From Thermoleophilia bacterium (GTDB lineage: Bacteria > Actinomycetota > Thermoleophilia > UBA2241), in NCBI GenBank assembly GCA_040772045.1, contig JAXGYV010000001.1:69577-133576 (forward strand): a DNA stretch of 64,000 nt, read 5' to 3'. A program made the position numbers and the translations under genes. Below are positions 40,462-64,000 of this stretch, one piece after another. The notes beneath the pieces were generated by a model that was given only the letters and a program-made list of their open reading frames with translations, did no database searches and was not told the DNA's origin. Position 1 is the stretch's first letter. Each line of letters begins with the position of its first letter.

Positions 40462-40630
40462 CGGCCGCCGCGAGAGCTGGGCTCGGTCTGTCTCGAGCGA
40501 CGCGCTATCTGCTATACTTCGGAGCCGCTTTTTCATCCCGACCCGGCGGGTCCGGGCGCACGGCGGTGCCCTTCAGGGAACCGTGTGTCTCCGCCGGCCA
40601 GAAACCGTAACCGAGTTCGAGGAGGCAGTC

Positions 40631-49112: not shown

Positions 49113-50191
49113 CGAGCCGGCCGGCAGCGCGTCCTACGCGTCGCATCGCCGTGGGCGCCGTCGCCGTCGGCGGCGGCGCCCCCATCGCGGTGCAGTCCAT
49201 GACGTGCGCGCCGGCCGGCGACGCTCGGGCTACTCTGGAACAGATTCGCGTGCTGGCGGCGGCCGGCTGCGAGCTAGTACGGGTCGCGCTGCCGAAAGAC
49301 GAGGCTGTGCCCAGCTTCCGCCAGGTGGTGAGCGGCTCGTCGCTGCCGGTGATCGCCGACATCCACTTCGACTGGCGGCTCGCCTTGGCCGCCATCGAGT
49401 GTGGCGCCGCGGGTGTGCGGTTGAACCCTGGGACCATGGGGAGCCGAGCTAAGGTGCGCGAGGTGGTGCGCGCGGCCACCGAGCACGGTGTAGCTGTACG
49501 TATCGGCGTGAACACCGGCTCACTGCCGCGCGCCCTGCGCGATCGCGCCACCACCCAGCCGGCCGAGGCGTTGGTGGAGGCGGCGCTGGGGTACAGCGGC
49601 GCATTCGACGAGTGGGGCTTCCGGAACTACAAGATCAGCGTGAAATCCTCGAGCGTGCCGACGACCATCCGAGCGTACCGAACGCTGGCCGAGCGCTGCG
49701 ATGCGCCGCTGCACGTGGGTGTTACCGAGGCGGGCACCCGCTGGGGCGGCATCATCAAGAGTGCCGTCGGCATCGGCGCACTGCTGGCGGACGGCATCGG
49801 CGATACGCTGCGCGTGTCTCTTACCGCCGACCCGGTGGAAGAAGTGCGGGTGGCCTGGGCCATCCTGGCCGCGCTGGGCTTGCGTCGGCGCGGCCCCGAT
49901 GTGATCTCCTGCCCCACCTGTGGCCGCACGGAGATCGACGTGATCGCCCTAGCGGAGGAGGTGGAGCGGCGCCTACAGGCGTACACGATACCGATCACCG
50001 TGGCCGTCATGGGATGCCGTGTGAACGGCCCCGAAGAGGCTCGTCACGCCGACTTCGGTATCACCGGCGGAGCGGGGGAGGGCATCGTGTTCGCCCGCGG
50101 CCAGCGGGTGGGAGCAGTGCGCGAAGAGCACCTCATCGACGAGCTCTTCGCCCTGATCGACGTCGCCGCCGCCGCGCCGCCGCGGCGCTGA
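49109..50191 (+). CDS. ispG: 4-hydroxy-3-methylbut-2-en-1-yl diphosphate synthase (GcpE)
   Basis: AVQSMT N-terminal motif, ISCPTCGRTE and MGCRVNGP [4Fe-4S] cysteine motifs. Confidence 0.9.
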   Translation: MTSRPAARPTRRIAVGAVAVGGGAPIAVQSMTCAPAGDARATLEQIRVLAAAGCELVRVALPKDEAVPSFRQVVSGSSLPVIADIHFDWRLALAAIECGAAGVRLNPGTMGSRAKVREVVRAATEHGVAVRIGVNTGSLPRALRDRATTQPAEALVEAALGYSGAFDEWGFRNYKISVKSSSVPTTIRAYRTLAERCDAPLHVGVTEAGTRWGGIIKSAVGIGALLADGIGDTLRVSLTADPVEEVRVAWAILAALGLRRRGPDVISCPTCGRTEIDVIALAEEVERRLQAYTIPITVAVMGCRVNGPEEARHADFGITGGAGEGIVFARGQRVGAVREEHLIDELFALIDVAAAAPPRR

Positions 50192-50194
50192 TGG

Positions 50195-51394
50195 TCAGCG
50201 GGGAGGGCCGGATGCGCCGTCTCGCGTACGAGCCCAGCGCGCCAGCACTTCCACGACTCGGCCGGCGGCTCTGCCGTCCCAGAGCGGGATGCGCGGTGGC
50301 TCCGCGGCAGCGGCGCGCGCTTGCCTGCCCCGTTCCACGGCCGCTCGCGCGGCGACCAAGATCGCGGCGTGATCGAAGGGATCTGCCAGGCGGTTGGTAC
50401 CCTCCGTTACCGTGATCGGTCGTTCGGTGGTGGTGCGGACCGTCACGCAGGGTATCCCGAGGGCGGTCGTCTCTTCCTGCACGCCGCCGGAGTCCGTGAT
50501 CACGGCGGCGGCGTGTCGCATGAGGCCGAGGAACTCAATGTAGCCCAGCGGATCGGTGAGGATCAGGCAGTTGCCGTCCCGCTGGCGATCGCGGTTCCAG
50601 CCAGGCAGTTCGGCAACGCGCGCACGCGTGCGCAGGTGCATGGGGAAGACCACCTGGACATCGCGGCCGAGGGTGTGCAAGACCCCCAGGAGCCGCTCGA
50701 GCTGTGGCGGATCGTCTACGTTGCTGGGGCGATGGAGCGTGACGAGCACGAATTCGCCAGCGCCGATGCCCAGCCTGGCGCGGGTGCCGGCCGCCGCCGC
50801 CTCGCCGCGTTCCAGGAGGTGCAGGAGCGAGTCGATCATGGTGTTGCCCACGTTCGTGATGCGCGCGGCGGGGATACCTTCGCGAAGCAGATTGGCGTTC
50901 GCCTCGGCACAGGTCGTGAGCAGTACGTCGGACACATGGTCGGCGACGATGCGATTGATCTCCTCTGGCATGGCGCGGTCGCCGCTGCGCAGACCGGCCT
51001 CGAGGTGAGCCACCGGCAGGACGAGTTTGGCTGCGGTGAGGGCGGCCGCGCACGTCGAGTTCACATCGCCTGGGACCAAGACGAGGTCGGGGCGGTGACG
51101 CAGCATGACCGGCTCCAGAGCCTCTAAAAGCCGGGCGGTCTGCCGCGCGTGGGAACCGGACCCCACGCGCAGGCTCTCATCGGGCTCGGGCAGGGCGAGC
51201 TGCTCCAGGAAGACCTGGCTGAGCACGTCGTCGTAGTGCTGGCCGGTATGAACGAGGACTTGTTCGAAGCGCGGTGCGCGAGCCTCACAGGATTCGTTCC
51301 AGGCCGTCATGGCCGCCATGACGGGCGCCACCTTCATGAAGTTGGGCCGCGCGCCGACCACGTGCATGATCTTGCAGGTGCGTGAGGCGGTCAT
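50195..51394 (-). CDS. wecB: UDP-N-acetylglucosamine 2-epimerase (non-hydrolysing)
   Basis: MHVVGARPNFMK N-terminus, HxxxGxR region, DSGGVQEE motif. Confidence 0.9.
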   Translation of the reverse strand: MTASRTCKIMHVVGARPNFMKVAPVMAAMTAWNESCEARAPRFEQVLVHTGQHYDDVLSQVFLEQLALPEPDESLRVGSGSHARQTARLLEALEPVMLRHRPDLVLVPGDVNSTCAAALTAAKLVLPVAHLEAGLRSGDRAMPEEINRIVADHVSDVLLTTCAEANANLLREGIPAARITNVGNTMIDSLLHLLERGEAAAAGTRARLGIGAGEFVLVTLHRPSNVDDPPQLERLLGVLHTLGRDVQVVFPMHLRTRARVAELPGWNRDRQRDGNCLILTDPLGYIEFLGLMRHAAAVITDSGGVQEETTALGIPCVTVRTTTERPITVTEGTNRLADPFDHAAILVAARAAVERGRQARAAAAEPPRIPLWDGRAAGRVVEVLARWARTRDGASGPPR

Positions 51395-52206
51395 GCCCGG
51401 TCGTCTCCCATGTTGTCCCTCCGCGCAGGCTGTTCACCGCGCCGCCCTCGCGGACGAAGGCGGTAGCGCAGCACCAAGAGCAGGAACGAGAGGTTGCCGA
51501 GCAGGTACCGGCGCCACATGCGTCCTGGCTCTTGCGCGAAGCGGAACACCCACTCCAGGCCGGTGCGCTGCATCCACCGCGGCGCTCGTCTCACCTCGCC
51601 GGCGTACACGTCGAAGCTGCCGCCGACCCCCATGCAGAACGGAACGCCGAGCGCCTGGAGATGCTCTGCCAGCCAGTACTCCTTGCGCGGGCTGGGGATG
51701 CCCAGGAAGAGGAGGTCGGCGTTCGACGTCCGCACGGCGGCGATCAGGTCGCCGAGCTCGTCATCTGCCCAGTAGCCGTGGCGCCAGCCGCAGATGCGCA
51801 ACCGCGCGTGGTCCCTCCGCGCGCGGGCGACGACCTTCTCGACGACCGCGGGTTTCGCCCCCAGGAAATACACCCCGTAGCCGCGGTCGGCGGCGAGCTG
51901 GAGCAGGGCCTGGAAGAGGTCGATGCCAGTCACTCGCTCCGGTAATGGCTGACCCAAGATGCGCGCCGCCCACACGATGGACTGTCCATCGGCGTTCACC
52001 AGGGCGCAGCCGGACACTATCTCGCGCAGGCGGGGATCTCTCTCCATCAGCACGGCCTTGTGGGCGTTCACGACGCAGTGCTGCGTCGGCGTGCCAGCGG
52101 AGATGAGACGTTCGATGCGGGCGAGGGTCTCGGCGAAGGTGAGGGGATCGATAGGGCATCCCGCCACCGAGACGCGAGGGGGGGTTGCCGCGCCCGTGGT
52201 GCTCAT
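51391..52206 (-). CDS. WecG/TagA/CpsF-family glycosyltransferase (UDP-ManNAc transferase type, GT26)
   Basis: VNADGQSIVWA and YFLGAKP motifs of GT26; overlaps the wecB start. Confidence 0.85.
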   Translation of the reverse strand: MSTTGAATPPRVSVAGCPIDPLTFAETLARIERLISAGTPTQHCVVNAHKAVLMERDPRLREIVSGCALVNADGQSIVWAARILGQPLPERVTGIDLFQALLQLAADRGYGVYFLGAKPAVVEKVVARARRDHARLRICGWRHGYWADDELGDLIAAVRTSNADLLFLGIPSPRKEYWLAEHLQALGVPFCMGVGGSFDVYAGEVRRAPRWMQRTGLEWVFRFAQEPGRMWRRYLLGNLSFLLLVLRYRLRPRGRRGEQPARRDNMGDDRA

Positions 52207-54131
52207 ACATTCCCCTTTCGAACGCCGGGGGAGACGGGCAGTATGGCGCTGCGCAGCCGCGCGCTAGATGCGCGGATGAACTGCTGGTGCCAGAGCTCGA
52301 ACACGATCAGGTCGAGCAGCACGCGCTTGTGATCCTCGCGCCCGGCGACGTGCTGGCGGATCATCTGGTCGACGGCGCTCGCGTTGAAGTAGTGGGCCGT
52401 GGCGGCCTCGCGGTCCAGCAGCAACTCGCGCACCTGGGTCGTGAGGTCGCTGCGCAACCACGCATCGAGGGGTGACTGGAACGGGATCTTCTTGCGCCGC
52501 AGCACTTCCTCGGGAACCCACGCGCTCACCGCTTTGCGCAGCAGGTACTTTTGGGTGCGGCCACGGATCTTGAGCGCGGCCGGAACACGCTCGACGAAAC
52601 GCATCAGCTCGAGATCGAGGAGCGGGACGCGAGCTTCCAGCGACACGGCCATGGCGAGTTTGTCTCCGTAGAGCAGCAGGTTGTCGGCGAGAGACAGGCG
52701 GGAGTCCATGTAGAGCATCTGGCTCAGTCCGTCGAGGTGGCTTACCTCCGCTCCCCACAGGGCGGTAGGGAGCTCGGGTTCATCGTGAGGCTGCAGTCCC
52801 GGAGCGTAGAGCCGGCCTTTCTGCTCGGCGTCGACGACCGTCCATACGGCCACCATGCGAGCGAGAGGGTCGCGCGTTCCCAGTGAGCGTACCGCGCGCT
52901 TCAAACGCTCGTTGCGCGGCAGGCGCGCCACTAGTACCCTGGCTACGCCGTCCAGCAGGGCGGGAGGAGCGCCGCGGAGCAACCAGCCGTAGCGTTCGCC
53001 CAGGTGTCGCGGATAGCCAGCGAAGGGTTCGTCGGCGCCTTGCCCGGTGAGGACGACCTTGACGGTGGTGGCCGCCAGCTCGCACACGCGGGAGTAGGCG
53101 AGCGTGGAGTCCGTGGCCACCAGATCCTCCAGGTACCACACGGCGCGGGGGAGGAATCCGACGTACTCGTCGGCCGAGATCACGATGTCGTGATGGCGGC
53201 TGCCCAAACGCCGCGCTGTGGCGCGGGCGTACGCCGTCTCGTCCAGGCGGTGGTGGCCGGCGAACCCCACGGTAAACGTATCGATGGGCTGCTCGGCCAG
53301 CCGTGCCATGAGGGTGGCCGTGGTCGTAGAGTCCACGCCGCCGCTCAGGAGTGCGCCAACCGGTACGTCGGCCACCATCTGACGGCGCACCGCGGCGGCG
53401 ATGAGCTCGCGAAGCTCCTCTACCAGAGCAGCTTCGTCGCGGGAGTCCATCGCCGTGGGCGCGGCGATGTGGTACCGGCGAAGCGCGCATCCCCGCGGCG
53501 TACAGACCAGGGCGTATCCCGGGGGGAGGCGGTGGATGCCGGCGAACGCCGTGCGCGGCGATGGGACGTAGCTGAAGCTCAAGTAGAGATCTAAGCCGAG
53601 CGGGTCGACGGCCCGAGGGACAGCCGGGTCGCACAGCAGGCTCTTGATCTCGGAGGCGAAACGGATCGTGCCACCAGTATCGTGGTAGTAGAGCGGTTTG
53701 ATGCCGTAGGGGTCGCGGGCCAGGACGAGCGTTCGTTCGGCGGCGTCCCACAGAGCGAGCCCGAACATGCCGTTGAGGCGGGTGAGGAAGGCGAAGCCCC
53801 ACTGCTCGTAGGCATGGACAAGAGCTTCGGTGTCGCTACGTGTACGAAAGATGTGGCCGTGGGCCGCGAGCTCCGCGCGGAGCTCGCGGAAGTTGTAGAT
53901 CTCGCCGTTGCACACCGTGACGTGCGTGCCGGCTTCGCTGGCGATGGGCTGGGCGCCGCCCTCGAGGTCGATGATACTCAGGCGGCGCATCCCCAGGCCG
54001 AGCGCGCCGGCGAAGTGGAAGCCGTCGTCGTCCGGTCCACGGTGCACCATGGCCGCCGTCATGTCGCGGATTGTGGTCTGCGATACCGGCTCGCCGTCAC
54101 GGTAGTTGTAGATGCCACAGATGCCGCACAT
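52203..54131 (-). CDS. Asparagine synthase (glutamine-hydrolysing) family amidotransferase paralog
   Basis: MCGICG Ntn-glutaminase start, SGGVDS PP-loop; 642 aa; embedded in a glycan operon rather than an amino-acid context. Confidence 0.9.
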   Translation of the reverse strand: MCGICGIYNYRDGEPVSQTTIRDMTAAMVHRGPDDDGFHFAGALGLGMRRLSIIDLEGGAQPIASEAGTHVTVCNGEIYNFRELRAELAAHGHIFRTRSDTEALVHAYEQWGFAFLTRLNGMFGLALWDAAERTLVLARDPYGIKPLYYHDTGGTIRFASEIKSLLCDPAVPRAVDPLGLDLYLSFSYVPSPRTAFAGIHRLPPGYALVCTPRGCALRRYHIAAPTAMDSRDEAALVEELRELIAAAVRRQMVADVPVGALLSGGVDSTTTATLMARLAEQPIDTFTVGFAGHHRLDETAYARATARRLGSRHHDIVISADEYVGFLPRAVWYLEDLVATDSTLAYSRVCELAATTVKVVLTGQGADEPFAGYPRHLGERYGWLLRGAPPALLDGVARVLVARLPRNERLKRAVRSLGTRDPLARMVAVWTVVDAEQKGRLYAPGLQPHDEPELPTALWGAEVSHLDGLSQMLYMDSRLSLADNLLLYGDKLAMAVSLEARVPLLDLELMRFVERVPAALKIRGRTQKYLLRKAVSAWVPEEVLRRKKIPFQSPLDAWLRSDLTTQVRELLLDREAATAHYFNASAVDQMIRQHVAGREDHKRVLLDLIVFELWHQQFIRASSARLRSAILPVSPGVRKGNV

Positions 54132-54136
54132 CGTGG

Positions 54137-55384
54137 TCAGTTGGTCTCCCGCACCGCCACGAGCACCAGCGCGCGAAACATCTGCGCTTGCGCCCAGCGA
54201 TGGTAGGGGACCGTATTACGTCCGCACATGGTCTCACGTGTCACGAAATGCCCGTCCGGCAGGACCCAGCGTCGCAGTACCTCCGTGAGGAGGGCCGTGC
54301 CGATCGCCGAGGCCTCAGGATCCACATCGGCCAACAGCAGGGCGAGGTTGATGCCTTCGGCGTAGTCGTACAACTCGCGCCGCTGGAGCGTGGGGCGCTC
54401 CGAGTAGGCGAACGGCACCGGCAGCCCGGCGGAGTCGAGAAGGGAGGACTTGTAGGAAGCGTAACCACGGAAGGCGGCTGCTAGGAGATCGGAGTCGCCG
54501 AGGACGCGCCATGCTTTGATGAGGTTCTTCAGGACGAGACACGTGTGCAGGTTATCGACGAACGCATCCTTGCCATCCATGGCGTACAACCAGGAGCCAT
54601 CCGGCCGCTGGCTGTACAGGACGAAGGCCAGCGTAGCTCGTGCCTCAGCGAGCCACTCGTCGGCGGCGAATCGCGAACCGGCCGCGGCGAGCAGGAAGCC
54701 GCGGTATGCGCTCGCGTTCACCACGCGCCGGCTGTCGTACGGCGAGTACGCGGAGGCGCGCACACCCGGGGCGATCTCCGTGCTCGGGATGCGGGCGTAA
54801 GCGAAGCGCGCGATGGACTCCATGATAGCCAGATACCGCGGTTCGGCCGTGGTCGCGTACGCCGCCTCGGCGGCCTCGTACGCGTACGGCGTGGACGTGA
54901 TCAGAGGCGTGCCCGCTTTCCAGGTGCCGAAGCACGTCTGCCAATCGAACGGGTAGCCCCAGCAGTGCTCGGGCTCGCCGGGACAGCGCTGGTCCAAGAG
55001 CGCCGCGAGGTGCTGCTGTCCGCGCGACGACCAGGCTGGATCGTGGGCTTGTGCCAGTGCGAAGAACCCCATGGCGTAGTGGGCGTCGGCGATGGGGAAC
55101 CGCTGACGGTGCCACAGGAGCTTGCGCGTGGCCGGGAGAGCGGTGTCGAGCAAGACGAATGGGGCTACCAGGGGGAGGCCCAACCACCGGTGGCGGTAGT
55201 AGACGGCTTTCGCCCGCCGACCCACCGGGTTGGCCCACAGATCGTGCGCGTCCCACGACGTGGGGCCGTACATCTCCAGCCATGCCGCGTGCCGGAGCGC
55301 CGCGTGCAGCGCGGCTGCGGAGAGGCGCGACTGGTCGTGGTGGCGCGCGGCGTACGAGCTTGGCGAGGGGGGAGCCGCGCTCAT
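54137..55384 (-). CDS. Hypothetical protein of the glycan cluster (415 aa; Trp/Tyr-rich, possibly an alpha/alpha-toroid polysaccharide-modifying enzyme)
   Basis: Long ORF with operon-like overlaps on both sides; no confident family from reading. Confidence 0.5.
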   Translation of the reverse strand: MSAAPPSPSSYAARHHDQSRLSAAALHAALRHAAWLEMYGPTSWDAHDLWANPVGRRAKAVYYRHRWLGLPLVAPFVLLDTALPATRKLLWHRQRFPIADAHYAMGFFALAQAHDPAWSSRGQQHLAALLDQRCPGEPEHCWGYPFDWQTCFGTWKAGTPLITSTPYAYEAAEAAYATTAEPRYLAIMESIARFAYARIPSTEIAPGVRASAYSPYDSRRVVNASAYRGFLLAAAGSRFAADEWLAEARATLAFVLYSQRPDGSWLYAMDGKDAFVDNLHTCLVLKNLIKAWRVLGDSDLLAAAFRGYASYKSSLLDSAGLPVPFAYSERPTLQRRELYDYAEGINLALLLADVDPEASAIGTALLTEVLRRWVLPDGHFVTRETMCGRNTVPYHRWAQAQMFRALVLVAVRETN

Positions 55385-56559
55385 GGTTCCTCCCGTCGTC
55401 GCGACGAGGCACGGCGCGGCGCACTGTCGCGAGCCACGCGCTCGAGGATCGTCAGGTACCGAGGTGTCACCGCCGCGGGCGCGAACTCCTTGACTTTGGC
55501 GAGGTTGTTGGCGGCCATCGTCGCTCGCAGCCCGTCGTCAGCCAGCAGACGCTCGATAGCCTCGGCGAGTTTCTCGGGCTCCCGTGGCGGAATGAACAGG
55601 GCGTTCACGCCCTCTGCGAGCCGCTCGGCGGCACCGGGGAGATTGGTGGTGACGATAGGCAGTCCCCTGCTCATCGCCTCCGGCAGCACTGTGGGGAAGC
55701 CCTCACGGTACGAAGGCAGGACGAAGACGTCAGCCTGGCGGTAACAGGCACCGAGGGCTTCGCCCGATACGTGTCCGCGCCAGTCGATCTTGTCCGCGAT
55801 CCCCAGCAGGCGCGCCTGCTGGGCCAAGGCGTTCGCGCTGGGGCCATCGCCCGCGACCACCAGACGGCACGGCACGGCCGCGTTGAGGTGCGCGAGCGCT
55901 TGCAGGAGGTCCGCCACGCCTTTCTGTGGTACCAGGCGACCAACGTACAGGATGGTTGGCTCAGCGGGTGGCGTGGTCTGGCTGGGCTCGCGTGCCGCGT
56001 CTAGTGGTATGGGTGCAGCCGCGTCAGGGACAAAGGGATTCGTAACCACGTCGAAGCGGCTGTTCGGCAGGAAGGCGGACCACTCGTCGCGCTCCTGCGT
56101 GGAGAGCACCAGAGTGGCGTCGGCCTGCCGAACGAGCAGGCGAGACGCGAGCTTGAGCAGCCGGTGCCCCGGGGCGACCAGGCGGTCGGAGTGACTGCCG
56201 TGGAAGTGCAGGACGCGATGCGCGCACAGCCGTCGCGTGGCCAAAACCAGGGGGATATCGCGCAGAAGCCCGCCCCAGTTGTGCGCGGTGGCGATGAAGA
56301 GCACGTCGACTGGGCGTCGCCGGAGCTGGCGGCGGATGCGCGCGATGTCCGCGGTCCGGCCAATCGTCTTCGAGAGCAGCGTCTCCTCGTCGGTGTGGCG
56401 GCCCCAGCTCGCGGTCTCGACAGCACAGCCCAGGAGTCTGAGGTGGTCTACCAGGAGCGGGACGATCTTGGGGATAGGGCCGCGAACGTGCGCGTGCGGG
56501 GCGAGCAGCAGCAGTCGTAGCCTCCGCCCAACGGGTGCATGATCGTCGGTCGCGGTCAT
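55381..56559 (-). CDS. Glycosyltransferase family 4 (GT-B, retaining)
   Basis: C-terminal EGFPTVLPEAMSRGLPIV and LVVAGDG motifs. Confidence 0.85.
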   Translation of the reverse strand: MTATDDHAPVGRRLRLLLLAPHAHVRGPIPKIVPLLVDHLRLLGCAVETASWGRHTDEETLLSKTIGRTADIARIRRQLRRRPVDVLFIATAHNWGGLLRDIPLVLATRRLCAHRVLHFHGSHSDRLVAPGHRLLKLASRLLVRQADATLVLSTQERDEWSAFLPNSRFDVVTNPFVPDAAAPIPLDAAREPSQTTPPAEPTILYVGRLVPQKGVADLLQALAHLNAAVPCRLVVAGDGPSANALAQQARLLGIADKIDWRGHVSGEALGACYRQADVFVLPSYREGFPTVLPEAMSRGLPIVTTNLPGAAERLAEGVNALFIPPREPEKLAEAIERLLADDGLRATMAANNLAKVKEFAPAAVTPRYLTILERVARDSAPRRASSRRREEP

Positions 56560-56696
56560 CTCGGGACGCCTATCTCTCGCTCGTGAAGCCCCGTCATCGT
56601 ATCGGCAGGCGGTCGAAAAAGGCGAACCGCCGGATGCGCGGATGGGTACCCATCAGGATGGTCGACCACCACTCGCAGTCCTCGGCCATCCGATGA

Positions 56697-57788
56697 CTAG
56701 GCCGAGGTGGCCTCTTCATATACACGGACGAAACCCTCGACCATACGCTCGAGAGAGTAGACGTCGGCGATACGGCGCCAACCCGCCGTGCCCATGGCGC
56801 GGCGTTCGGCTCCGTGAGCGCACAGATAAGCGATGCGCTCGGCGAGCGCCGTGGCGTCGGTCGGAGGGACCACGAAGCCGGTTTCCCCATCCTCGACGAG
56901 CTCGCGATTGCCGCCGCCCTCTCCGCAGATCACCGGCAGGCCGCACGCCATGTACTCCATGATGGCGTTGGAACAGCCCTCCTGCGCCCACGCCGGATCG
57001 GTCATGAGCACGCCGATGTCCGCCTGGTACATCTGAGGGATCGCCTCGAGGCCGGCGGTGGCGAACACGACCGTGCCGTCAGCGAGCAGGTCGGCGGCCT
57101 CCGCCATGAGAGCCGGGCGAGTCGGGCCGTCTCCGACGAAGAGGAAGCGATAGGGATGCTGTCTCCGCAGGAGGCGAGCCGCGGCGATCACGAGGCGATA
57201 GTTCTTCTCGGGCGCCATTCTGCCGACCATGACAACCGTGCAGGGCTTGGGCGCGTCGGCTGACGAGTGTTCGGCGCTCGTGCCGGCCGTCGAACATGCG
57301 GCGAGGCGGGAACGGTCGAAACCGTTGGCCACCACGCATCCCTTACGCGGCGGCACGCCCCACGCCTGCAGGCCGGCGTGCGAGTTGGCCACGACGGTGG
57401 TGGCGCACGCCATGCCGACGCGTTTGAGGGGCAGGTGCGCGGATTGCAGAGCGCCTGTGCGGATGGTGCCGTCGATGAGGGGGATGCGGCAGAGCCGGCA
57501 GACCGGGCCGGCGATCAAGGTGGAGATCCAACTCCATGAGTGCACGACGTCTGGTCGCGACAGGGCGATCTCCCGCCAGAGAGTGGCCGCCGGATCTGGG
57601 TCGAAGCGGGAGCGGCGCTTGAGAACGCGTACGGCGATGCCGCGCTCGCGGAGGTAAGTTACGAACGGTCCTCCGCCCAGCGCGCACACGCGCCGTTCCC
57701 ATTCCGCGGGCAAGCCGGCGGCCAACAGGGTCATCTGCCGCTCTGCTCCGCCGTTACCGAGGGAGTCTACGAGGAAGAGCACCTTCAC
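56697..57788 (-). CDS. Glycosyltransferase family 4
   Basis: MKVLFLVDSLGNGGAE N-terminus, EGCSNAIMEYMACGLPVI C-terminal motif. Confidence 0.85.
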   Translation of the reverse strand: MKVLFLVDSLGNGGAERQMTLLAAGLPAEWERRVCALGGGPFVTYLRERGIAVRVLKRRSRFDPDPAATLWREIALSRPDVVHSWSWISTLIAGPVCRLCRIPLIDGTIRTGALQSAHLPLKRVGMACATTVVANSHAGLQAWGVPPRKGCVVANGFDRSRLAACSTAGTSAEHSSADAPKPCTVVMVGRMAPEKNYRLVIAAARLLRRQHPYRFLFVGDGPTRPALMAEAADLLADGTVVFATAGLEAIPQMYQADIGVLMTDPAWAQEGCSNAIMEYMACGLPVICGEGGGNRELVEDGETGFVVPPTDATALAERIAYLCAHGAERRAMGTAGWRRIADVYSLERMVEGFVRVYEEATSA

Positions 57789-58783
57789 AGACCGCGTACC
57801 TCTAGTTCGCCGGCCGAGAGTTCCCGTGCGGCCGCCGTGAGGCCGATGAAGCTCCCGCCGCCCGCGCGAACTTCGCGGAAGAACTCAGTGAGGCAGCGGT
57901 AGAGCGCGCGAATGGACTCTGCCGTAGGTCGAAAGGGACTTCCGCCGGGCAGCAACTCGCTGCTGTGGAACATCATCACCGCGATCTTAACACCGGTGCG
58001 CTCGGCGTGTCGCCAGACCCGCAGGAGATCCGCGGGCCCATAGTGAGGTCGGGGTGCGAGCCACATGGGCTGCGGCTGCAGCCAAGTACGCAGAAGGACC
58101 TTGCGTATGGCTCGCGCGGGCTTCGCTTGGTACGCCCGCAGGAGAGTCGGGTGCCTGCGGAGTACATCGTATGTCGGCAGCACGGTCACCGGGATCTCGA
58201 TGAGCGGTACGCCGCCGCTGCCGCTCACGCGAAACGGCTGCACCGAGCAGTGCGAGAAATCCGGCCCCGCCTCGCCCGGCAGGCCGGGCGTGTCTCGCCA
58301 GGAAGTCAGCGGCGTGACGGACGAGTCGACCACGTAGCCCTCCTGGACGAGCGCCTGAGCGACGCGAAGGTCGAAGCCAAACCGGCCAGCGCGAAACGCT
58401 GTCGGCACCGCGCCGAACGCGCTGGCGATCTCTCGCGTTAGATTGTGGAGCTTCTCCTGCAAGAGGGAGGTGGGGAGCTGTGAGGGAAACGCGTGGATCC
58501 GATCGTTAAACCGCAGGCCGGGCGCGTCCACAAACGGCGGGGTGGTCCATGGGTGAAGGTGTGCGCCCACTTCGACGAGCCCTTGCCGCTGCCAATTCGA
58601 CAGGTAGTCGCGCGCGAGGTCGTCGGCGGCCATCTCCGAAGTGAGGAGGTAGGTGGGGATCACGCCGTACTCGTCGCAGAGTTCTTGAAATCTCGGCCAG
58701 CTTCGCACATTACGGGTGTTGACCGGGCAGCCGTGGTCCCACTGGCAGTCTGCCTCCACGTCTAGGGTAACCGCGAGCTTCAT
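57785..58783 (-). CDS. Polysaccharide-deacetylase-like protein (WalW-type, divergent CE4-like)
   Basis: MKLAVTLDVEAD N-terminus typical of the WalW-like deacetylase subfamily; internal ATG chosen (ATGA overlap with upstream gene). Confidence 0.6.
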   Translation of the reverse strand: MKLAVTLDVEADCQWDHGCPVNTRNVRSWPRFQELCDEYGVIPTYLLTSEMAADDLARDYLSNWQRQGLVEVGAHLHPWTTPPFVDAPGLRFNDRIHAFPSQLPTSLLQEKLHNLTREIASAFGAVPTAFRAGRFGFDLRVAQALVQEGYVVDSSVTPLTSWRDTPGLPGEAGPDFSHCSVQPFRVSGSGGVPLIEIPVTVLPTYDVLRRHPTLLRAYQAKPARAIRKVLLRTWLQPQPMWLAPRPHYGPADLLRVWRHAERTGVKIAVMMFHSSELLPGGSPFRPTAESIRALYRCLTEFFREVRAGGGSFIGLTAAARELSAGELEVRGL

Positions 58784-59868
58784 CGCCGGCGGCCACCTGC
58801 GCGGCGCTGCAGAACCGCTGTGTGCAGCCGTCGGACGGCGTGCGCTGAGGCCGCGATGGTCGGTGAGGACATTTTCTCGTGGATAGCCACCACCTTCTCG
58901 GGCTCCGCCGTAGGGGCGAAGCCACGCTTGAAGAAGTTGACGCCCCACAAGGGGTCTTCCGGCCGGGCCATCAAGCTGTAACCCCCGAGATCAAACAGGG
59001 TGCAGCCGCGCGCGCGAGCCCAGCGTATGGCCTCCCAGAGGAGGAGGTGCGAGCCCGACGCTTTGCCAGACGCCTTGGGGTTGCGCCCGGAGGGCAGCAT
59101 GCGGAGGTGCGCGCGCTCGCGGTAGATAATCACCAGGGCAGCGGCCAGCGGCTGGTTGCCCTCGCGGGCGATAAGGACAGTGCCGCCGCTGCCGCCGTGC
59201 AGCCAGCACCGGCTGATGCGAGCGAGGAGATCGGGAGAGGCCGTCTCCACGGGGGCTCGCTCGCGCATGGCGCGCTGCAGGTCGCAGAGAATGGCCTGAC
59301 CCTCGGCCGTGTCTTCAGGCTGGACGGCGACGCCGAGTCGCAGGCACTTCCTGATCTCCTGGCGAGTGGAGCTGCGAAACGATGCGAGCAGGGCCTCTTC
59401 GCTGAGAGAGAGGTCGATGCACAGTGTCGCCCACGTCCCGAACAGGCGATGCCGTACGTAACCGTGTCGCTCCAGCGTGGACTCCACGGCGTCGCCTCCG
59501 CCGTCGAGGGGCAGAGGGGGCGCGACCCGTATGCGCGCCGCGTCGTGCGCGAGCACACCGTCCAGCCACCCTAGCCAGTGGTCGAACACCTCGCCGTCCA
59601 GAAAAGTTGGCCCCTTACTGAACTCCCAGAAGGAACGGCCCGGGATGGGCAGCTGGCGGCGTACTCCTAGCGCGGTCAGACAGACTTCGCCATCCTGCTC
59701 GCCCCAGAAGAAGAACGGCCGGCGAGCCGTACGTCCTTGCCCAGAGCGCTCGACCTCTGCCCAGTCGGGATCCGCGAGGTAATGCGTCCAGGGGACTTGC
59801 TCGGCGTGCCGCTGCCACCGCGCACGTACGTCGGGCTCCAGCCATGGGGAGTAGAAGAATGCATACAT
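58780..59868 (-). CDS. FemAB-family / GNAT-fold peptidyl- or aminoacyl-transferase-like protein
   Basis: Two-GNAT-lobe length (roughly 360 aa), C-terminal FDLGG...FKRGF region as in FemAB-related EPS-associated proteins; internal ATG MYAFFYSPW chosen. Confidence 0.6.
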   Translation of the reverse strand: MYAFFYSPWLEPDVRARWQRHAEQVPWTHYLADPDWAEVERSGQGRTARRPFFFWGEQDGEVCLTALGVRRQLPIPGRSFWEFSKGPTFLDGEVFDHWLGWLDGVLAHDAARIRVAPPLPLDGGGDAVESTLERHGYVRHRLFGTWATLCIDLSLSEEALLASFRSSTRQEIRKCLRLGVAVQPEDTAEGQAILCDLQRAMRERAPVETASPDLLARISRCWLHGGSGGTVLIAREGNQPLAAALVIIYRERAHLRMLPSGRNPKASGKASGSHLLLWEAIRWARARGCTLFDLGGYSLMARPEDPLWGVNFFKRGFAPTAEPEKVVAIHEKMSSPTIAASAHAVRRLHTAVLQRRAGGRRR

Positions 59869-59915
59869 CGTATCCCGCGGTTCTCCCTCGTGTCTCGCGC
59901 GAGCGCTGAGCGCCC

Positions 59916-61352
59916 CTAGACGCAGTCTCCCGCCGCCGCCGACTCGCGGAAGCTCGCGGCGGCGGAGGAGGCTGTCGGATCGCCGGTGTCGTGGACCTTC
60001 GTGATGGTGAAGCGGTATTTGCCGGAAGCGCTGGGCTCGATGTGGTCGACGAATTCGAACGACACGGCGCACTCCTCTCCCATGGCGAGCTGTACTCTGT
60101 GCGTGATCTCAGAGATGCCGGCTGCTCTCATGGCCTCGATATCGGGAAGGTCCTTCCGCTGGACGATGCGCGCTCGGACGTGCCGCGTCGACTCCTGAAT
60201 TACCTGAAACTTCTCGATCCAGTCCTGCAGGTGGAAGGCGTAGTTGAAGTACTGGCCCGCGACCAGCGTGCCGTCGGCCGTCACGAAGGTGTCGGAGACG
60301 CGACCGGTGATCTCTCGCAGGAGTGGCCAGACCCGCCCGCAGTCGCACGGCGCGTCCGCCCACACTCCCAAGTCACCGATCTCGTACCTGATAAGGGGGA
60401 GAGCGTAGTTGACGAGCGAAGTGACCACGATGCGGCCGGTCTCTCCCGGCTCGGCGGGGGTGCCGTCGTCGCGCAGTACCTCGAGGAACACCGTCTGGAC
60501 CGGCACGTGCATGCCGGCGTGGCGATTGCACTCAAACGCCATGCCGGAGACCTCGCGCGAGCCGTACGACTGGAACACCTCGGCACGAAACACCCGCGTC
60601 AGGAGGTCGCGCATGTGGGGCTGGAGGCAGCCCGCGGCGGTGGCGACCGTCTTGGGGGAATGCACGGTGAGGCCGTTTCTCTCGACGAACCGGGCGATCT
60701 CCACGGCGCTCTCGACGTAGGCGATGATGTGCTCCGGCCGTGAGCGGTTCATGATGTCGACGTACGAGCTCATGAGCTCGGGCGTCAGGCGGAAGCTGTT
60801 CAGCCAGATCTCGTTGCGCAGCCACTGTCCAAGCCGTGCCCGCAGCGTCTCCTTGCCCGTGAGAAGATCGTCTACCGAACCCCAGATATGGAGTCGCTTC
60901 TCTCCCAGTGGCCGGCAGAGGATCTCCGCGGCGGCCACCAGGCCCACGGCGCGCTGCCAATCCAAGTACGTGCTGTCGTTGATGAGGCGCACGGGCTCAC
61001 CAGTGGACCCGCCAGTCGAATCGTAGCGCCACGTCCTCTCCTGGAGGTCGTCGGATTGGAGGTCGTCGAAACGCGCGCGCAGCGTTGCCTTGTCGAGGAG
61101 AGGGAGGTGTGTGAAACGGGCGGCCAACGCCTCGGCTGAGGCGGTGGCCAGCCCCTGGCTAGAGAAGACCTCACGGTAGTATGGCACGTGTCGAGAGGCG
61201 TGTGCGAGCAGCGCGGCGAGCCGCCGTCGCTGATCGGCAGTGGAGGCCTCAGGAGTGAGCCACTGTCCTGCGCGCACTTCGGCTGCGTGCTGTCGCGTCG
61301 ACCCCCGCGACAGCGTCGCGAGCCGCTCGATTCTGGCCGCTAGCGGGGGCAT
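59916..61352 (-). CDS. CapK / phenylacetate-CoA-ligase-family adenylate-forming enzyme
   Basis: YDSTGGSTGEP AMP-binding P-loop, SYGSRE, YEIGD motifs of the PaaK/CapK ANL subfamily. Confidence 0.75.
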   Translation of the reverse strand: MPPLAARIERLATLSRGSTRQHAAEVRAGQWLTPEASTADQRRRLAALLAHASRHVPYYREVFSSQGLATASAEALAARFTHLPLLDKATLRARFDDLQSDDLQERTWRYDSTGGSTGEPVRLINDSTYLDWQRAVGLVAAAEILCRPLGEKRLHIWGSVDDLLTGKETLRARLGQWLRNEIWLNSFRLTPELMSSYVDIMNRSRPEHIIAYVESAVEIARFVERNGLTVHSPKTVATAAGCLQPHMRDLLTRVFRAEVFQSYGSREVSGMAFECNRHAGMHVPVQTVFLEVLRDDGTPAEPGETGRIVVTSLVNYALPLIRYEIGDLGVWADAPCDCGRVWPLLREITGRVSDTFVTADGTLVAGQYFNYAFHLQDWIEKFQVIQESTRHVRARIVQRKDLPDIEAMRAAGISEITHRVQLAMGEECAVSFEFVDHIEPSASGKYRFTITKVHDTGDPTASSAAASFRESAAAGDCV

Positions 61353-61443
61353 GTATCCTCGCTAGCGGGTAGCTCGCGGGAGTCGACGTTCTGGTGCCGC
61401 GCGCGATACGCGACCATGGCTCCTCGTTGTGTGCTGGCGTGTG

Positions 61444-62625
61444 TCACGAACCCTCGGTGGTGGATTTGTGCGCGCGCGGGGGCTTCTGGCGGCGCGCGTT
61501 GGCGGCGCGCAGCGCGCGTACAGCGCGCCGCGCCGCTCCGTATCGTGCGCCGATGAGCCCGACGAGAGGCGGTGCCGCCACGCGCCCTAGCGCGAGGTGT
61601 GCTTGTCGCATGGGGATCGTCTCGGGCTGCCAGTCGCGCGACCACGGCGTGTCGGTCACCAGATCGAGGCGTTTGATCGCCGGGTCGGTGCAGCAGCGCT
61701 CAAGTGTCCTGTTGAGGAGCACTTGCCCGGGGCCCAGGCGCGCGTAGTCCTGATCGTAGCCGATCTTGAGGATCGCGTAGTCGGGGCCGGTGCGCACGCA
61801 GAACTGCGCGGCGACACAGCGATCGTCTACCCAGAGGCTGTTGATCTCGCAGTGGTCTTCGGGACCGACCATGGTGGCGACGAGGGCACGGTAGAAGGCG
61901 GTCAGTCGCGGATACAGGCTGATGGCGGACCCCGTGCCGCCCTGCCCCTTCCAACCCGAGGCCTCGACGCTCAAGAAGGCCTCGAGGGCACCCTCCAGGA
62001 TGTCTTCGCCGACAGCGGTGGCGAAGCGCGCGCCCTCGAGGCGCGCGATCTTGTTGCAGTGGCTGCGCACGTTCCGCCGGAAGTGCTTGGACAGGCGAGC
62101 CATGAGCTCGTCGTAGGGCTTCTGGCAGTCGAAGCAGTGAGACACCTCTGTGGCGTGAGTGGACCAGGAACACCGGCTCATGTTCTGGAGGCCGTGCCAC
62201 ACGGCGGATGCTTGCGGCAGTGGCCCCAAGACCAGCAGCCGGCGTCCGTCCATGCTCGCACGAAGAAAGCGGACTGCGGCGGGTACGAGCGCGGCCGCGG
62301 CTTCCGCGTCTGGGCAGAGCACGTCGGTGATGGTCCAGTGTGGGTGCCAGGGGAGGGCCCAGACGTGCAGAGGGTAGCGCAGGCTCGTGTCGTCCCGCGC
62401 CACCAGGGGGCAGATGGCGCGCACGTGTCGCCCATCCGTGAGAGTGAGATACCGAGAGAGCTCTGGTGTGTCGCAGAGATGGTCGAGATATGCCAGCTGT
62501 GCCTCAAAGGTGTGGTATCTCGATCTGTGGGGCAGCGCCGCGTACAGCGTCCTCCAGTCTGCCTCCAGGCGCTGCAGCCCGGCGCGGCCCCGGTGCTCAA
62601 CGATCCTCCACGGCGACGTACTCAT
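61444..62625 (-). CDS. GNAT-family acetyltransferase (CelD/BioF2-like, EPS-associated)
   Basis: Roughly 390 aa; C-terminal GNAT core (SLWVDDRCVAAQF...LKIGYDQDY); internal ATG chosen. Confidence 0.6.
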   Translation of the reverse strand: MSTSPWRIVEHRGRAGLQRLEADWRTLYAALPHRSRYHTFEAQLAYLDHLCDTPELSRYLTLTDGRHVRAICPLVARDDTSLRYPLHVWALPWHPHWTITDVLCPDAEAAAALVPAAVRFLRASMDGRRLLVLGPLPQASAVWHGLQNMSRCSWSTHATEVSHCFDCQKPYDELMARLSKHFRRNVRSHCNKIARLEGARFATAVGEDILEGALEAFLSVEASGWKGQGGTGSAISLYPRLTAFYRALVATMVGPEDHCEINSLWVDDRCVAAQFCVRTGPDYAILKIGYDQDYARLGPGQVLLNRTLERCCTDPAIKRLDLVTDTPWSRDWQPETIPMRQAHLALGRVAAPPLVGLIGARYGAARRAVRALRAANARRQKPPRAHKSTTEGS

Positions 62626-63695
62626 GACGAGGAGCTCGTGCCGACGTGGAGGCCGTGCGCACGCCGGCTGAAACGAGCGCTGGCTCTCATCAGGCTGCCC
62701 GGAACGTAGGAGAGCACGTGGTACGAGCAAGGTACGTGGAAGACACGGGCGAGCTCGTTTCGGGCGCGTCGCCGCTGCCCCTGCCCCAACAACTGGCGTA
62801 CCTTCTGGAGCCGAAAGTGGTCAGCGGCATGCTCGTAATCGTCTCGGTGCAGGGCGAGGAACTCCTCATCCTGGCCCCAGACTCGCTCGATGATGGTCAG
62901 AGCGGCCTCCGCGCGCGCGGAGGCCGCGAGGCCTGTGAGCCGCGCGCCCGCATGGCCGTGCTGCCACGCCGTATCGCAGTCCATGTAGCCGGCGAGGCCG
63001 CGCCGCGCCAGCCGAGCAAAGCACTCCCAGTCTTCATAGATCGCGATGTCTTCGGGAAATCGCAGAGCGTCGCCGGCTTCGCGCCGGCGCACGACGACCG
63101 TGCACGTGTTCACGTACCAGCCGTTGATGTACGCCTCGTACAGGCGTCCGATGTGCAGCCTGAAGTCTGGAGCGGACGCCGGCAGATCCCGGATGGTGGT
63201 TGAGTCGATAGTACGGGAGAGGACGCGATCTGGGGCGCTCGCGTTGCCGTACCACGACGAGAGGTAGTGTGACACGCGGCGCCCTTGTTCTGTAACCACC
63301 CCAAAGTCGCTGAAAACGAACAGTATGTCGGGGAACTGTTCGAGTACTGTGCGCTGCCATGCAAGCTTTCCGGGGATCCATTCGTCGTCTGAGTCGAGAA
63401 AGGCGACGAGATCTCCCTGTGCCCACTGGACGCCGGTATTCCGCGCGGTACCGGCGCCGCGGTGATCGGTCCTGACGTACCGTACGGCGGGCGCGAAGGC
63501 GCGCACGACCGCCTCGGTGTTGTCCGTCGATCCGTCGTCGACAACGATGACTTCGTCTCCTGATTGACACTCGGTGAGCGCACAACCAACCGCTCGTGCA
63601 AGGAGGTGCGCGCGATTGAACGTTGGGATCACCACCGAGACTGTGAGATGTGTCACGGGCGAGGTGTCCTTGCGGTGCCGCCTGAACGAAGCCAA
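62622..63695 (-). CDS. Glycosyltransferase family 2
   Basis: VVIPTFNRA...VVDDGSTD...FLDSDDEW (DxD) motifs. Confidence 0.85.
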   Translation of the reverse strand: MASFRRHRKDTSPVTHLTVSVVIPTFNRAHLLARAVGCALTECQSGDEVIVVDDGSTDNTEAVVRAFAPAVRYVRTDHRGAGTARNTGVQWAQGDLVAFLDSDDEWIPGKLAWQRTVLEQFPDILFVFSDFGVVTEQGRRVSHYLSSWYGNASAPDRVLSRTIDSTTIRDLPASAPDFRLHIGRLYEAYINGWYVNTCTVVVRRREAGDALRFPEDIAIYEDWECFARLARRGLAGYMDCDTAWQHGHAGARLTGLAASARAEAALTIIERVWGQDEEFLALHRDDYEHAADHFRLQKVRQLLGQGQRRRARNELARVFHVPCSYHVLSYVPGSLMRASARFSRRAHGLHVGTSSSS

Positions 63696-63765
63696 CTATA
63701 GCATGAGGTCATCGCTCGCCCGGCGAGGGGCGGCGAGCGGTGGAAGCAAGAGGCCGGCTCCGTGG

Positions 63766-64000
63766 TCAGCGAACATCTCCTGAGCCAGCGCGCGTATCTC
63801 GGGCCACGGCTGCGAAGAACGCGCGGAGCCTAGCTCCGTGAAGCGCGTAATGGAGCTGTTCCTCGGCGATACGGCGGCCGGCTTGTCCTATCGTCGCCGC
63901 TCTCTCGGGATCGTCGAGGGCGGCGACGATCTGGGCGGCATAGGCGGCCGCGTCGCCCGGCTTCGAGAGGTACGCCGTCTCTCCGTCCTCGAGGTAACGG
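63766..64000 (-). CDS. Glycosyltransferase family 4, C-terminal fragment (gene continues beyond window end)
   Basis: Hand translation of the minus strand gives ...YLEDGETAYLSKPGDAAAYAAQIVAALDDPERAATIGQAGRRIAEEQLHYAL...* , the canonical GT4 C-terminus (E-x7-E region); stop complement at 63766-63768. Confidence 0.6.
   Translation of the reverse strand, partial: RYLEDGETAYLSKPGDAAAYAAQIVAALDDPERAATIGQAGRRIAEEQLHYALHGARLRAFFAAVARDTRAGSGDVR

Follow-up and report, generated by a model that had tools for sequence, protein, structure and literature searches.

Several described systems decorate bacterial glycans with amino acids or amides. The functions of the Vibrio polysaccharide (VPS) genes of Vibrio cholerae come from deletion mutants and liquid chromatography-mass spectrometry (LC-MS) of lipid-linked intermediates (PMC13463779). 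In that pathway, VpsA, VpsB and VpsK make and transfer N-acetylmannosaminuronic acid (ManNAcA), the WecG-type enzyme acting on a glucose (Glc) primer; VpsJ is needed for the next step, for which C5 epimerisation to N-acetyl-L-gulosaminuronic acid (L-GulNAcA) was proposed; and the PaaK/CapK-like VpsH puts glycine on a uronic-acid residue (PMC13463779). Here we describe an operon with related genes in a Thermoleophilia bacterium, studied in a window of 64,000 nucleotides (GenBank assembly GCA_040772045.1, contig JAXGYV010000001.1, positions 69,577 to 133,576) and running on the minus strand from position 50195 to the window end. The host is an uncultured actinobacterium. Its operon is a variation on glycan-tailoring systems that are already known and is not of the exosortase type. 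Judging from its homologues, we think it reasonably probable that it assembles a polyprenol-linked heteroglycan and tailors it with amide and aminoacyl groups, as a mosaic of three modules with studied counterparts. The product is most likely a surface or cell-wall glycopolymer.

For the lipopolysaccharide (LPS) core of Klebsiella, Regué and co-workers reportedly described in 2005 a two-step biochemistry in which WabH transfers N-acetylglucosamine (GlcNAc) and WabN then de-N-acetylates it to glucosamine (GlcN). The roles of WabH and WabN in the LPS core are listed in PMC5485987. In Porphyromonas gingivalis and Tannerella forsythia, VimE, with a CE4 family match at E 1e-83, was proposed to act as the deacetylase that takes off a 2-N-acetyl group, while VimA, which matches TIGR03019, decides whether serine or glycine goes on the freed sugar amine (PMC7468200). 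The AsnB-like WbpS of the same pathway belongs to the TIGR03108 family and makes a uronamide; this is the family assigned to WbpS and WbqG and linked to uronamide formation (PMC7468200).

Gene families of the operon and their counterparts

All operon genes lie on the minus strand, and those in the window are numbered G1 to G12 starting from the end next to ispG. G9, G5, G4, G2 and G1 match the VpsH, VpsI, VpsJ, VpsK and VpsA positions of two vps-like clusters with their relative order kept. These clusters, from a Vibrio sp. (L019) and a Pseudoalteromonas sp. (L020), served as comparators in place of V. cholerae itself. G1 (50195-51394), the last gene of the operon and convergent on ispG, encodes a non-hydrolysing UDP-GlcNAc 2-epimerase of the WecB/MnaA/VpsA type (TIGR00236, 293 bits with a cut-off of 210; PF02350, 334 bits) that is 31-33% identical to the VpsA-position genes. 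G2 (51391-52206) encodes a glycosyltransferase family 26 (GT26) N-acetylmannosamin(uron)yl transferase of the WecG/TagA/VpsK type (PF03808, 211 bits; TIGR00696, 158 bits), with 45-48% identity to the VpsK-position genes. The GT4 glycosyltransferase G5 (55381-56559; PF00534, 147 bits) is VpsI-like and shares 29-32% identity with the GT4 gene found directly upstream of the VpsJ-position gene in both clusters. For the PaaK/CapK/VpsH-like adenylate-forming ligase G9 (59916-61352), PaaK 4r1l was matched in the PDB (E 2e-22), CapK_C (PF27533) is present in the precomputed annotation of a 99% homologue, and BLASTP aligned 416 columns with the VpsH-position ligase of the Pseudoalteromonas cluster (E 1e-30, 27% identity). 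The motifs TGGSTGEP and SGK are present in G9.

G4 (54137-55384) encodes a 415-aa protein for which no Pfam, NCBIfam or PDB sequence match was found. Its structural model, with a predicted local distance difference test score (pLDDT) of 93, is an (α/α)6 barrel about equally like AGE-type sugar 2-epimerases and GH76 hydrolases, and this fold resembles that reported for VpsJ by the authors of PMC13463779. A tblastn search of the plasmid collection returned VpsJ-position genes of vps-like clusters (E 3e-10 and 7e-6), and hhalign aligned the G4 profile with a VpsJ-position protein over 315 columns (99.4% probability, E 2.7e-21). By these sequence comparisons G4 is a VpsJ homologue. The family is large, with 1,408 representatives of 50%-identity clusters at E ≤ 1e-3, and two proteins (P0349 and P0351) are natural fusions of a GT4 domain with a VpsJ-like domain, linking VpsJ-type proteins to the adjacent GT4 step. 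The VpsJ homologue of Pseudoalteromonas sp. THAF3 (NZ_CP045419.1; L020:11794-13002) is annotated as "aspartate-semialdehyde dehydrogenase", which looks like a propagated mis-annotation because the homologous G4 family is modelled as an (α/α)6 barrel.

A second group of genes is centred on G7 (57785-58783), for which no significant Pfam or NCBIfam match was obtained, PF01522 reaching only E 0.14. The AlphaFold2 model (pLDDT 93) has a distant CE4-like fold, and its top PDB matches are polysaccharide deacetylases, namely 3rxz (E 3e-10), ArnD and HP0310. BLASTP aligned G7 over 90% of its length with the proteins at the WabN position of enterobacterial LPS-core clusters (31-33% identity, E 3e-48), one of them annotated as "WalW protein" and another as "polysaccharide deacetylase". 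The motifs TxDxExD, HLHxW, RAGR and HSSE are common to G7 and the WabN-position proteins, and D8, E10, D12, H75 and H77 are invariant. The family counts 615 matches at E ≤ 1e-3. G7 is thereby predicted to be a glycan de-N-acetylase of the WabN/WalW family. It is paired with the GT4 glycosyltransferase G6 (56697-57788), which matches PF13692 and PF00534 and scores 133.5 bits with TIGR03088, the model of the PEP-CTERM-associated stp2 glycosyltransferase, for which the cut-off is 409. A GT4 gene directly follows the G7-like gene in five other loci (L011, L018, L102, L103 and, by Pfam only, L017), and where compared it is 50-61% identical to G6. Similarity of G6 to the GT4 of the waa cluster is of the generic GT4 kind, 27% over the C-terminal half.

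The pair of a G7-like gene and an adjacent GT4 recurs in L011, L017 and L018. In L017 (10001-12188), from an organism with TonB genes, the deacetylase (60% identical to G7) and the GT4 stand alone beside thiC and thiI, so that such a pair can work outside a large glycan locus. PDB sequence searches with G7 and G10 gave nothing useful, no literature was found on "WalW" or on "Acetyltransf_6", and a paper on an umbrella toxin and Streptomyces teichuronic acid held no relevant enzymology. The glycine on the LPS-core GlcN of Edwardsiella was considered as a precedent for N-glycylation and set aside, as the paper left the position of the glycine undetermined.

Next to the deacetylase, G8 (58780-59868) encodes a FemAB/VimA-like dupli-GNAT transferase that matches PF13480 with 47 bits, PF02388 with 35 bits and TIGR03019 with 24.8 bits, the cut-off of the last being 260.35. 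Among solved structures, it is closest to an aminoacyl-tRNA-dependent peptide synthase (9wqw, E 9e-6) and to FemX (6snr). Homologues of G8 share loci with G7-like genes in L011 and L018, and export is of the Wzx/Wzy or the Wzm/Wzt type in the loci where they occur (L009, L011 and L018). In L009, the FemAB-like gene is followed downstream by a gene for a GINT1_N-domain protein (PF24793, 110 bits; L009:11083-12036) and no G7-type deacetylase is found there; the gene that comes after a G8 homologue is thus not always such a deacetylase.

G10 (61444-62625) encodes a second Acetyltransf_6 (CelD/BcsL-like) GNAT protein, matching PF13480 with 82 bits, and its only NCBIfam match is a crotonyl-transferase effector, far below the cut-off. 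G10 is paired with the GT2 gene G11 (62622-63695, with the start at TTG 63695 or at GTG 63656), for which GT2-type NCBIfam matches extend over the N-terminal 120-150 residues and PF00535 is given in the precomputed annotation. The best match of G11 in the genome collection, at 60% identity, is in the Actinomycetes metagenome-assembled genome (MAG) locus L001. In L001, L003, L004 and L005, G10-like genes adjoin G11-like GT2 genes or lie within about 1 kb of them, and in L009 a G10 homologue (55% identical) adjoins the G8 homologue. A recent paralogous origin of G8 and G10 was rejected, as the two have no pairwise similarity.

Such families may also be read without amino acids. In the same glycan pathway, G9 could activate hydroxybutyrate, lactate or an aryl acid, and G8 and G10 could be acyl-CoA-dependent N- or O-acyltransferases that act on the sugar deacetylated by G7. 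This would agree with the sequence relatives of G9, which are phenylacetate-CoA ligases and PaaK-like amide- or ester-forming ligases, with PF13480 being a GNAT family, and with G10, which has no detectable link to aminoacyl-tRNA enzymes and whose only NCBIfam match is the crotonyl-transferase effector. However, the closest solved relatives of G8 are aminoacyl-tRNA-dependent, VimA homologues choose between Ser and Gly (PMC7468200), the VpsH-position homologue of G9 adds glycine (PMC13463779), and the operon has neither an acyl carrier protein nor a CoA-transferase. We therefore regard decoration by acids other than amino acids as unlikely.

The third group is represented by G3 (52203-54131), a glutamine-dependent amidotransferase of the AsnB family that is WbpS/WbqG-like and combines PF00733 with GATase domains. 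Its best NCBIfam match is TIGR03108, with 515.2 bits and thus below the cut-off of 816.9, while TIGR01536 is matched above its cut-off with 464 bits. The protein begins with MCGICG, so the Cys2 nucleophile is present, and has the PP-loop SGGVDS at residue 263. We propose that G3 may convert a carboxylate to a carboxamide. Three independent loci, namely the operon, L102 and L103, have the amidotransferase gene between a G4-like gene and WecG. This adjacency suggests that amidation of the WecG-transferred residue is a common variant, and the conserved neighbourhood supports the action of VpsJ-type proteins on that residue.

L102 and L103 are loci from two other uncultured bacteria in which the whole block G7-G6-G5-G4-G3-G2-G1 is colinear at 50-74% identity, flanked by Wzz/tyrosine-kinase genes. 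Part of the value of the present locus lies in this recurring seven-gene core of deacetylase, GT4, GT4, VpsJ-like protein, AsnB, WecG and WecB. Homologues of G8 and G10 are also found near the core in L103, where the equivalents of G6 and G5 are fused into one protein of 755 aa (L103:7674-9941). Directly after the core in L102, a 1,058-aa protein (L102:15220-18396) carries a PIG-L (LmbE-type deacetylase) domain with Big_9/PKD repeats and is a second, unrelated deacetylase family tied to this type of locus.

The comparisons allow a pathway to be proposed in which gene structure, homology, folds and gene order are observed and the chemistry of each step is taken over from the homologues. G1 would make UDP-N-acetylmannosamine (UDP-ManNAc), and G2 would transfer ManNAc(A) onto a lipid-linked primer coming from an unlinked enzyme. 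G4 would modify the lipid-linked ManNAc(A), by epimerisation or otherwise, as proposed for VpsJ, and G3 and/or G9 may act on uronic carboxylates after this step: G3 would turn a uronic-acid carboxylate into a primary amide, and G9 would use ATP to activate a carboxylate, giving the uronic acid an amino-acid amide. G6 would add an N-acetylhexosamine (HexNAc), G7 would remove its N-acetyl group, and G8 would re-acylate the amine so freed, the amino-acid donor probably being an aminoacyl-tRNA. G10, together with the GT2 enzyme G11, may carry out another transfer of an acyl or aminoacyl group. Chain extension would fall to G5, G12 and a GT4-like enzyme encoded beyond the window, with short-chain dehydrogenase/reductase (SDR) epimerases supplying epimeric sugar nucleotides, while priming, export, polymerisation and attachment would be encoded elsewhere.

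Several points weigh against this pathway. Identities to the studied proteins are low, 23-33% with the exception of WecG at 45-48%. The VpsJ activity is itself only proposed (PMC13463779), and G3 and G9 would both act on carboxylates. G8-G7-G6 fit the Vim proteins in superfamilies and adjacency, a likeness drawn from the descriptions of VimA, VimE and VimF, and G7, with no significant PF01522 match, is no close relative of VimE, which is a clear CE4 member. A UDP-sugar 6-dehydrogenase of the WecC/VpsB type was not matched in the window by tblastn with WecC and a UDP-glucose-dehydrogenase-type query, nor was one called in the operon extension (L013), L102 or L103, and the uronic acid for G3, G4 and G9 is therefore assumed to depend on an unlinked gene. 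Similarly, tblastn with proteins from related loci gave no window match for a flippase (Wzx), polymerase (Wzy), ABC exporter or priming transferase, and none was called in the extension, so that the product may be a polymer, an oligosaccharide or a glycoconjugate.

The enzymes G1 and G2 might instead belong to an ordinary wall-teichoic or teichuronic acid pathway, in which WecB and TagA make the GlcNAc-ManNAc linkage unit and the glycosyltransferases a plain polymer, while the FemAB-like proteins work on the interpeptide bridges of peptidoglycan and the AsnB paralogue amidates peptidoglycan instead of the glycan. AsnB paralogues amidate peptidoglycan in some Gram-positive bacteria. Matches of the TagA/TarA and MnaA types, the database name "lipid II:glycine glycyltransferase FemX" of some G8 homologues and the adjoining envelope and isoprenoid region uppS-cdsA-dxr-rseP-ispG would all agree with such a pathway. 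Yet glycerol- and ribitol-phosphate enzymes are missing from the locus, as are a primase and a polymerase of the TagB/TagF type, and G8 is translationally coupled to G7, its homologues sharing glycan loci with G7-like genes (L011, L018, L103). A glycan substrate is indicated for G3 by its place, in each of three independent loci, between WecG and the VpsJ-like gene, and the set of WecB, WecG, VpsJ, VpsH and VpsI fits an exopolysaccharide pathway with WecG acting on a Glc primer (PMC13463779). A teichoic or teichuronic acid pathway thus appears distinctly unlikely.

Relation to exosortase-associated families

The initial annotation of this DNA had assigned five accessory genes (AsnB-like, FemAB-like, CapK-like, CelD-like and a WalW-like deacetylase) to a set associated with exosortase and PEP-CTERM proteins and had suggested that the set decorates a glycan with amino acids or amides. 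Hidden Markov model (HMM) searches, folds and homologues uphold all five family calls at the superfamily level, and the name WalW-like deacetylase proved right for G7 in view of its CE4-type fold model and its 31-33% identity to WabN-position proteins. The idea of amino-acid or amide decoration agrees with what the homologous enzymes have been shown or proposed to do (PMC7468200, PMC13463779). The role of the set had been called uncharacterised; in fact, four of the five families have studied counterparts, namely VimA, VimE/WabN, WbpS/WbqG and VpsH. Neither G4 nor the SDR gene between rseP and ispG figured in that description.

The association with exosortases itself did not hold, as every exosortase-specific NCBIfam cut-off was missed. 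One could imagine that the accessory genes are the XrtA/EpsH exosortase/PEP-CTERM set transplanted into a Gram-positive genome, where they would make an unknown component of an exopolysaccharide coupled to PEP-CTERM protein sorting. The best NCBIfam matches of G3, G6 and G8 are indeed the XrtA-associated models TIGR03108, TIGR03088 and TIGR03019, and VimA-like, deacetylase and AsnB-like genes adjoin exosortase genes in Nitrosomonas, Nitrosococcus and Desulfovibrio (Veith et al., PMC7468200). But the scores fall far short (515 against 817, 133 against 409 and 24.8 against 260 bits), and TIGR03006, the model of the PEP-CTERM-locus deacetylase, is not matched by G7. Besides, the accessory families also occur in PEP-CTERM-negative genomes, and the host belongs to Actinomycetota, while Actinomycetes were reported to be without PEP-CTERM (Haft 2006, PMC1569441).

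The gene content points the same way. No exosortase is encoded among the 15 proteins of the complete operon or in nine orthologous and related loci, including 10 kb on either side in L009, L011, L013, L017, L018, L102 and L103, and a motif scan found no PEP-CTERM-like tail in any open reading frame (ORF) of the 64-kb window or of a 5-kb extension. The absence of an exosortase and a PEP-CTERM substrate from the window, already stated in the initial annotation, is thus borne out by annotation, hydrophobicity and motif scans. The region upstream of the window had been singled out there as the place for exporters or an exosortase; the approximately 3.45 kb by which the operon extends into it were inspected and hold no exosortase, Wzx/Wzy or ABC exporter. 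A Kyte-Doolittle scan found a hydrophobic segment in none of the 15 operon proteins, compared with five segments in RseP as a control; the operon has no membrane protein and encodes only soluble or peripheral cytoplasmic enzymes. Given these results, a transplanted exosortase set is very improbable. Rather than marking protein sorting, the accessory families would serve broadly in attaching amino acids and amides to sugars.

A link to protein anchoring can still be imagined in another form. FemAB-like enzymes acting after the WabN-type deacetylase might put amino acids with a free α-amine on a wall glycan, and this amine might serve as the acceptor to which a sortase-like transpeptidase covalently attaches secreted proteins. 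If this were true, the aminoacylated wall glycan would be a monoderm counterpart of the linking sugar in type IX secretion (T9SS), in which the C-termini of the cargo are joined by an amide bond to the seryl or glycyl group that VimA installs, and the clustering of the same families with exosortases in diderm bacteria would also be explained. We consider this very unlikely.

Operon extent and genomic setting

The ORF listing and translations confirm the layout given in the initial annotation, with 12 co-directional minus-strand genes from 50195 to the window end, overlapping genes and a gap of 3 nt to ispG. Overlaps of 4 nt of the ATGA or GTGA type are present at six junctions (G1/G2, G2/G3, G4/G5, G6/G7, G7/G8 and G10/G11), with ATGA at both ends of G2, at G4/G5 and at G7/G8, and GTGA at G6/G7. 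The stop codon of ispG (49109-50191) ends at 50191 and that of G1 begins at 50195, leaving the 3 nt between convergent stops. Only two internal spacers are sizeable, one of 137 nt between G6 and G5 (56560-56696) and one of 91 nt between G10 and G9 (61353-61443). A site scan found promoter- and terminator-like sites within the operon no more often than by chance, and none in either spacer. A 31-aa ORF is called in the G6/G5 spacer in three of four contigs that are 99% identical to the window. Glycosyltransferases in the window comprise two full GT4 genes (G5 and G6), the partial GT4 gene G12 and one GT2 gene.

These four metagenome contigs (L013-L016) share 16.2 kb with the window at 99% identity, and in them the operon runs about 3.45 kb beyond the window end, for a total of 15 genes and about 17.3 kb. 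The window therefore carries the 3' 13.8 kb of a 15-gene operon. G12 (63766-64000) is represented in the window by the C-terminal 77 codons of a 423-aa GT4 gene, found in full at L013:3598-4869. The continuation past 64000 that the initial annotation had expected comprises the missing part of G12 and two more genes, one GT4-like (476 aa) and one for an SDR epimerase (317 aa); the latter is the operon's first gene, and the operon goes no further.

In the 99%-identical contigs, a 400-nt leader with a GGAGG ribosome-binding site precedes this first gene. When the leader was scanned against Rfam, no riboswitch or other family was identified, the sole match being at E 0.21. Upstream of the leader, a divergent gene (L013:1-1181, equivalent to about 67.5-68.6 kb of the window) codes for a secreted protein that carries a signal peptide and a linker rich in Thr and Pro, together with the beginning of a β-helix domain. 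All four contigs break at the same point inside this gene, which suggests a repeated sequence there. Proteins with a β-helix also adjoin the homologous loci L018 (4748-5674; 42% identity over 50 aa) and L103 (20369-21164; by Pfam only).

A further sugar-nucleotide enzyme is encoded on the other side of the operon. The SDR epimerase gene at 48156-49112 on the plus strand is situated between rseP and ispG, sharing 4 nt with the start of ispG. Its matches are of the GalE, LegB and TviC types, all below cut-off; it is 46-49% identical to SDR genes in the glycan loci L011 and L018, and in the 99%-identical locus L021, the SDR gene found at this place shares 48% identity with the operon's first gene. 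This enzyme may supply sugar precursors. We fetched 80 metagenome loci with ispG relatives (51-77% identity, plus the same species). The order dxr-rseP-SDR epimerase-ispG is common among them, and of the 52 loci with sufficient upstream sequence, 27 have an SDR gene directly upstream of ispG. A sugar-nucleotide enzyme is hence embedded in the dxr-rseP-ispG string of isoprenoid genes across the lineage, and the SDR between rseP and ispG is a conserved lineage feature outside the operon.

Downstream of ispG, where 29 loci of other species have at least 4 kb of sequence, a homologue of any operon gene is present in L038 alone, in the form of a convergent WecB. The placement of the operon beside ispG is species-specific among the relatives sampled. 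Downstream of ispG, L038 (11098-19553) carries genes for an SDR epimerase, the convergent WecB, a DegT aminotransferase, two Bac_transf priming enzymes, a GFO/IDH/MocA oxidoreductase and a hexapeptide acetyltransferase, a Wbp-like set, and L033 (11927-20497) carries genes for a giant 1,604-aa Laminin_G_3/Big_9 surface protein and for an Acyl_transf_3 protein. The site appears to be a cell-surface locus that varies within this lineage.

The operon had been regarded in the initial annotation as an accessory insertion at a place where proS and polC normally follow, in a backbone called Firmicutes-like. The species-specific position speaks for the first part of this view, and an accessory locus remains plausible. 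A recent insertion that displaced proS/polC is not supported, since the GC content matches that of the flanking housekeeping genes and so does the GC content at third codon positions (GC3), with 0.819 for the operon against 0.820 for housekeeping genes; recent horizontal insertion was rejected on this composition. As to the host, the 90%-identity clusters of the window proteins have members named as MAGs of an uncultured Actinobacteria/Actinomycetota bacterium. The backbone, with dxs, recN, pyrG, smc, ffh, dprA, whiG, rpsB, pyrH, uppS, cdsA, dxr, rseP and ispG, is of the Gram-positive type but actinobacterial and not that of a Firmicute, and the expected proS/polC order is not supported. Counted from the first start codon, the ORF of rpsB (40583-41872, plus strand) reaches up to 429 aa, an unusual length, and it partly matches the "S2, sunset domain variant" model with 313 bits, the cut-off being 710. 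This suggests a ribosomal protein S2 with a C-terminal extension.

Comparison with described glycan systems

Like the Gram-positive TagO/TagA/MnaA pathway, which makes the linkage unit of wall teichoic acids and secondary cell-wall polymers, the operon has adjacent genes of the GT26 TagA type and the WecB/MnaA type, here at its end, and its host is probably monoderm. Unlike wall teichoic acid loci, the operon and the window have no TagO, TagB/D/F, TarI/J/L or ABC exporter TagGH, and the remainder of the operon is of the exopolysaccharide-tailoring type. With XrtA/EpsH loci (PMC1569441) it shares the accessory superfamilies of FemAB-like, deacetylase, AsnB-like and GT4 proteins, but neither an exosortase nor a PEP-CTERM protein is encoded in the window or the operon extension, and all family cut-offs are missed.

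G3 has the AsnB architecture of WbpS of Pseudomonas aeruginosa O6 and WbqG of Escherichia coli O121, in which a Cys2 glutaminase domain at the N-terminus is joined to a PP-loop synthetase domain, although it stays below the TIGR03108 cut-off and its locus has no UDP-GlcNAc/GalNAc dehydrogenase. In comparison with the WabH/WabN system, G7 is homologous to the WabN-position protein encoded between waaQ and waaL, and a GT4 follows G7 just as WabH works with WabN. The acceptor differs, being no LPS core here, the freed amine would probably be re-acylated, and G6 is only generically like the GT4 of the waa cluster.

The likeness to the Wbp/Vim system lies in a deacetylase that would free an amine, a FemAB-like, TIGR03019-like transferase, an adjacent GT4 and a TIGR03108-like AsnB, and the order G8-G7-G6 mirrors what we take to be the order vimA-vimE-vimF. 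There is no T9SS here, and the operon has none of the enzymes WbpA/B/E/D by which 2,3-diacetamido uronic acid is made: it encodes no dehydrogenase, GFO/IDH/MocA oxidoreductase, DegT aminotransferase or hexapeptide acetyltransferase; the sugar would therefore not be a 2,3-diamino uronic acid made in the locus.

V. cholerae VPS differs in several respects: the present host is a monoderm actinobacterium, G1, G4, G5 and G9 have identities of only 23-33%, and the operon is without VpsB/WecC, the priming transferase VpsL, the flippase or polymerase VpsE/F and the acetyltransferases VpsC/G. In addition, the AsnB amidotransferase of the operon sits between the VpsJ-like gene and WecG, and a WabN/FemAB module has been added. 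The operon nevertheless has homologues of VpsA (G1), VpsK (G2), VpsJ (G4), VpsI (G5) and VpsH (G9), and the relative order of ligase, GT4, VpsJ-like gene and WecG is kept. G4 (VpsJ-like) and G7 (WabN-like), which represent large families without a significant Pfam match, are now tied to specific steps. Seen beside these systems, families usually annotated as "hypothetical", "FemX", "phenylacetate-CoA ligase" or "aspartate-semialdehyde dehydrogenase" here form one conserved glycan-tailoring toolkit.

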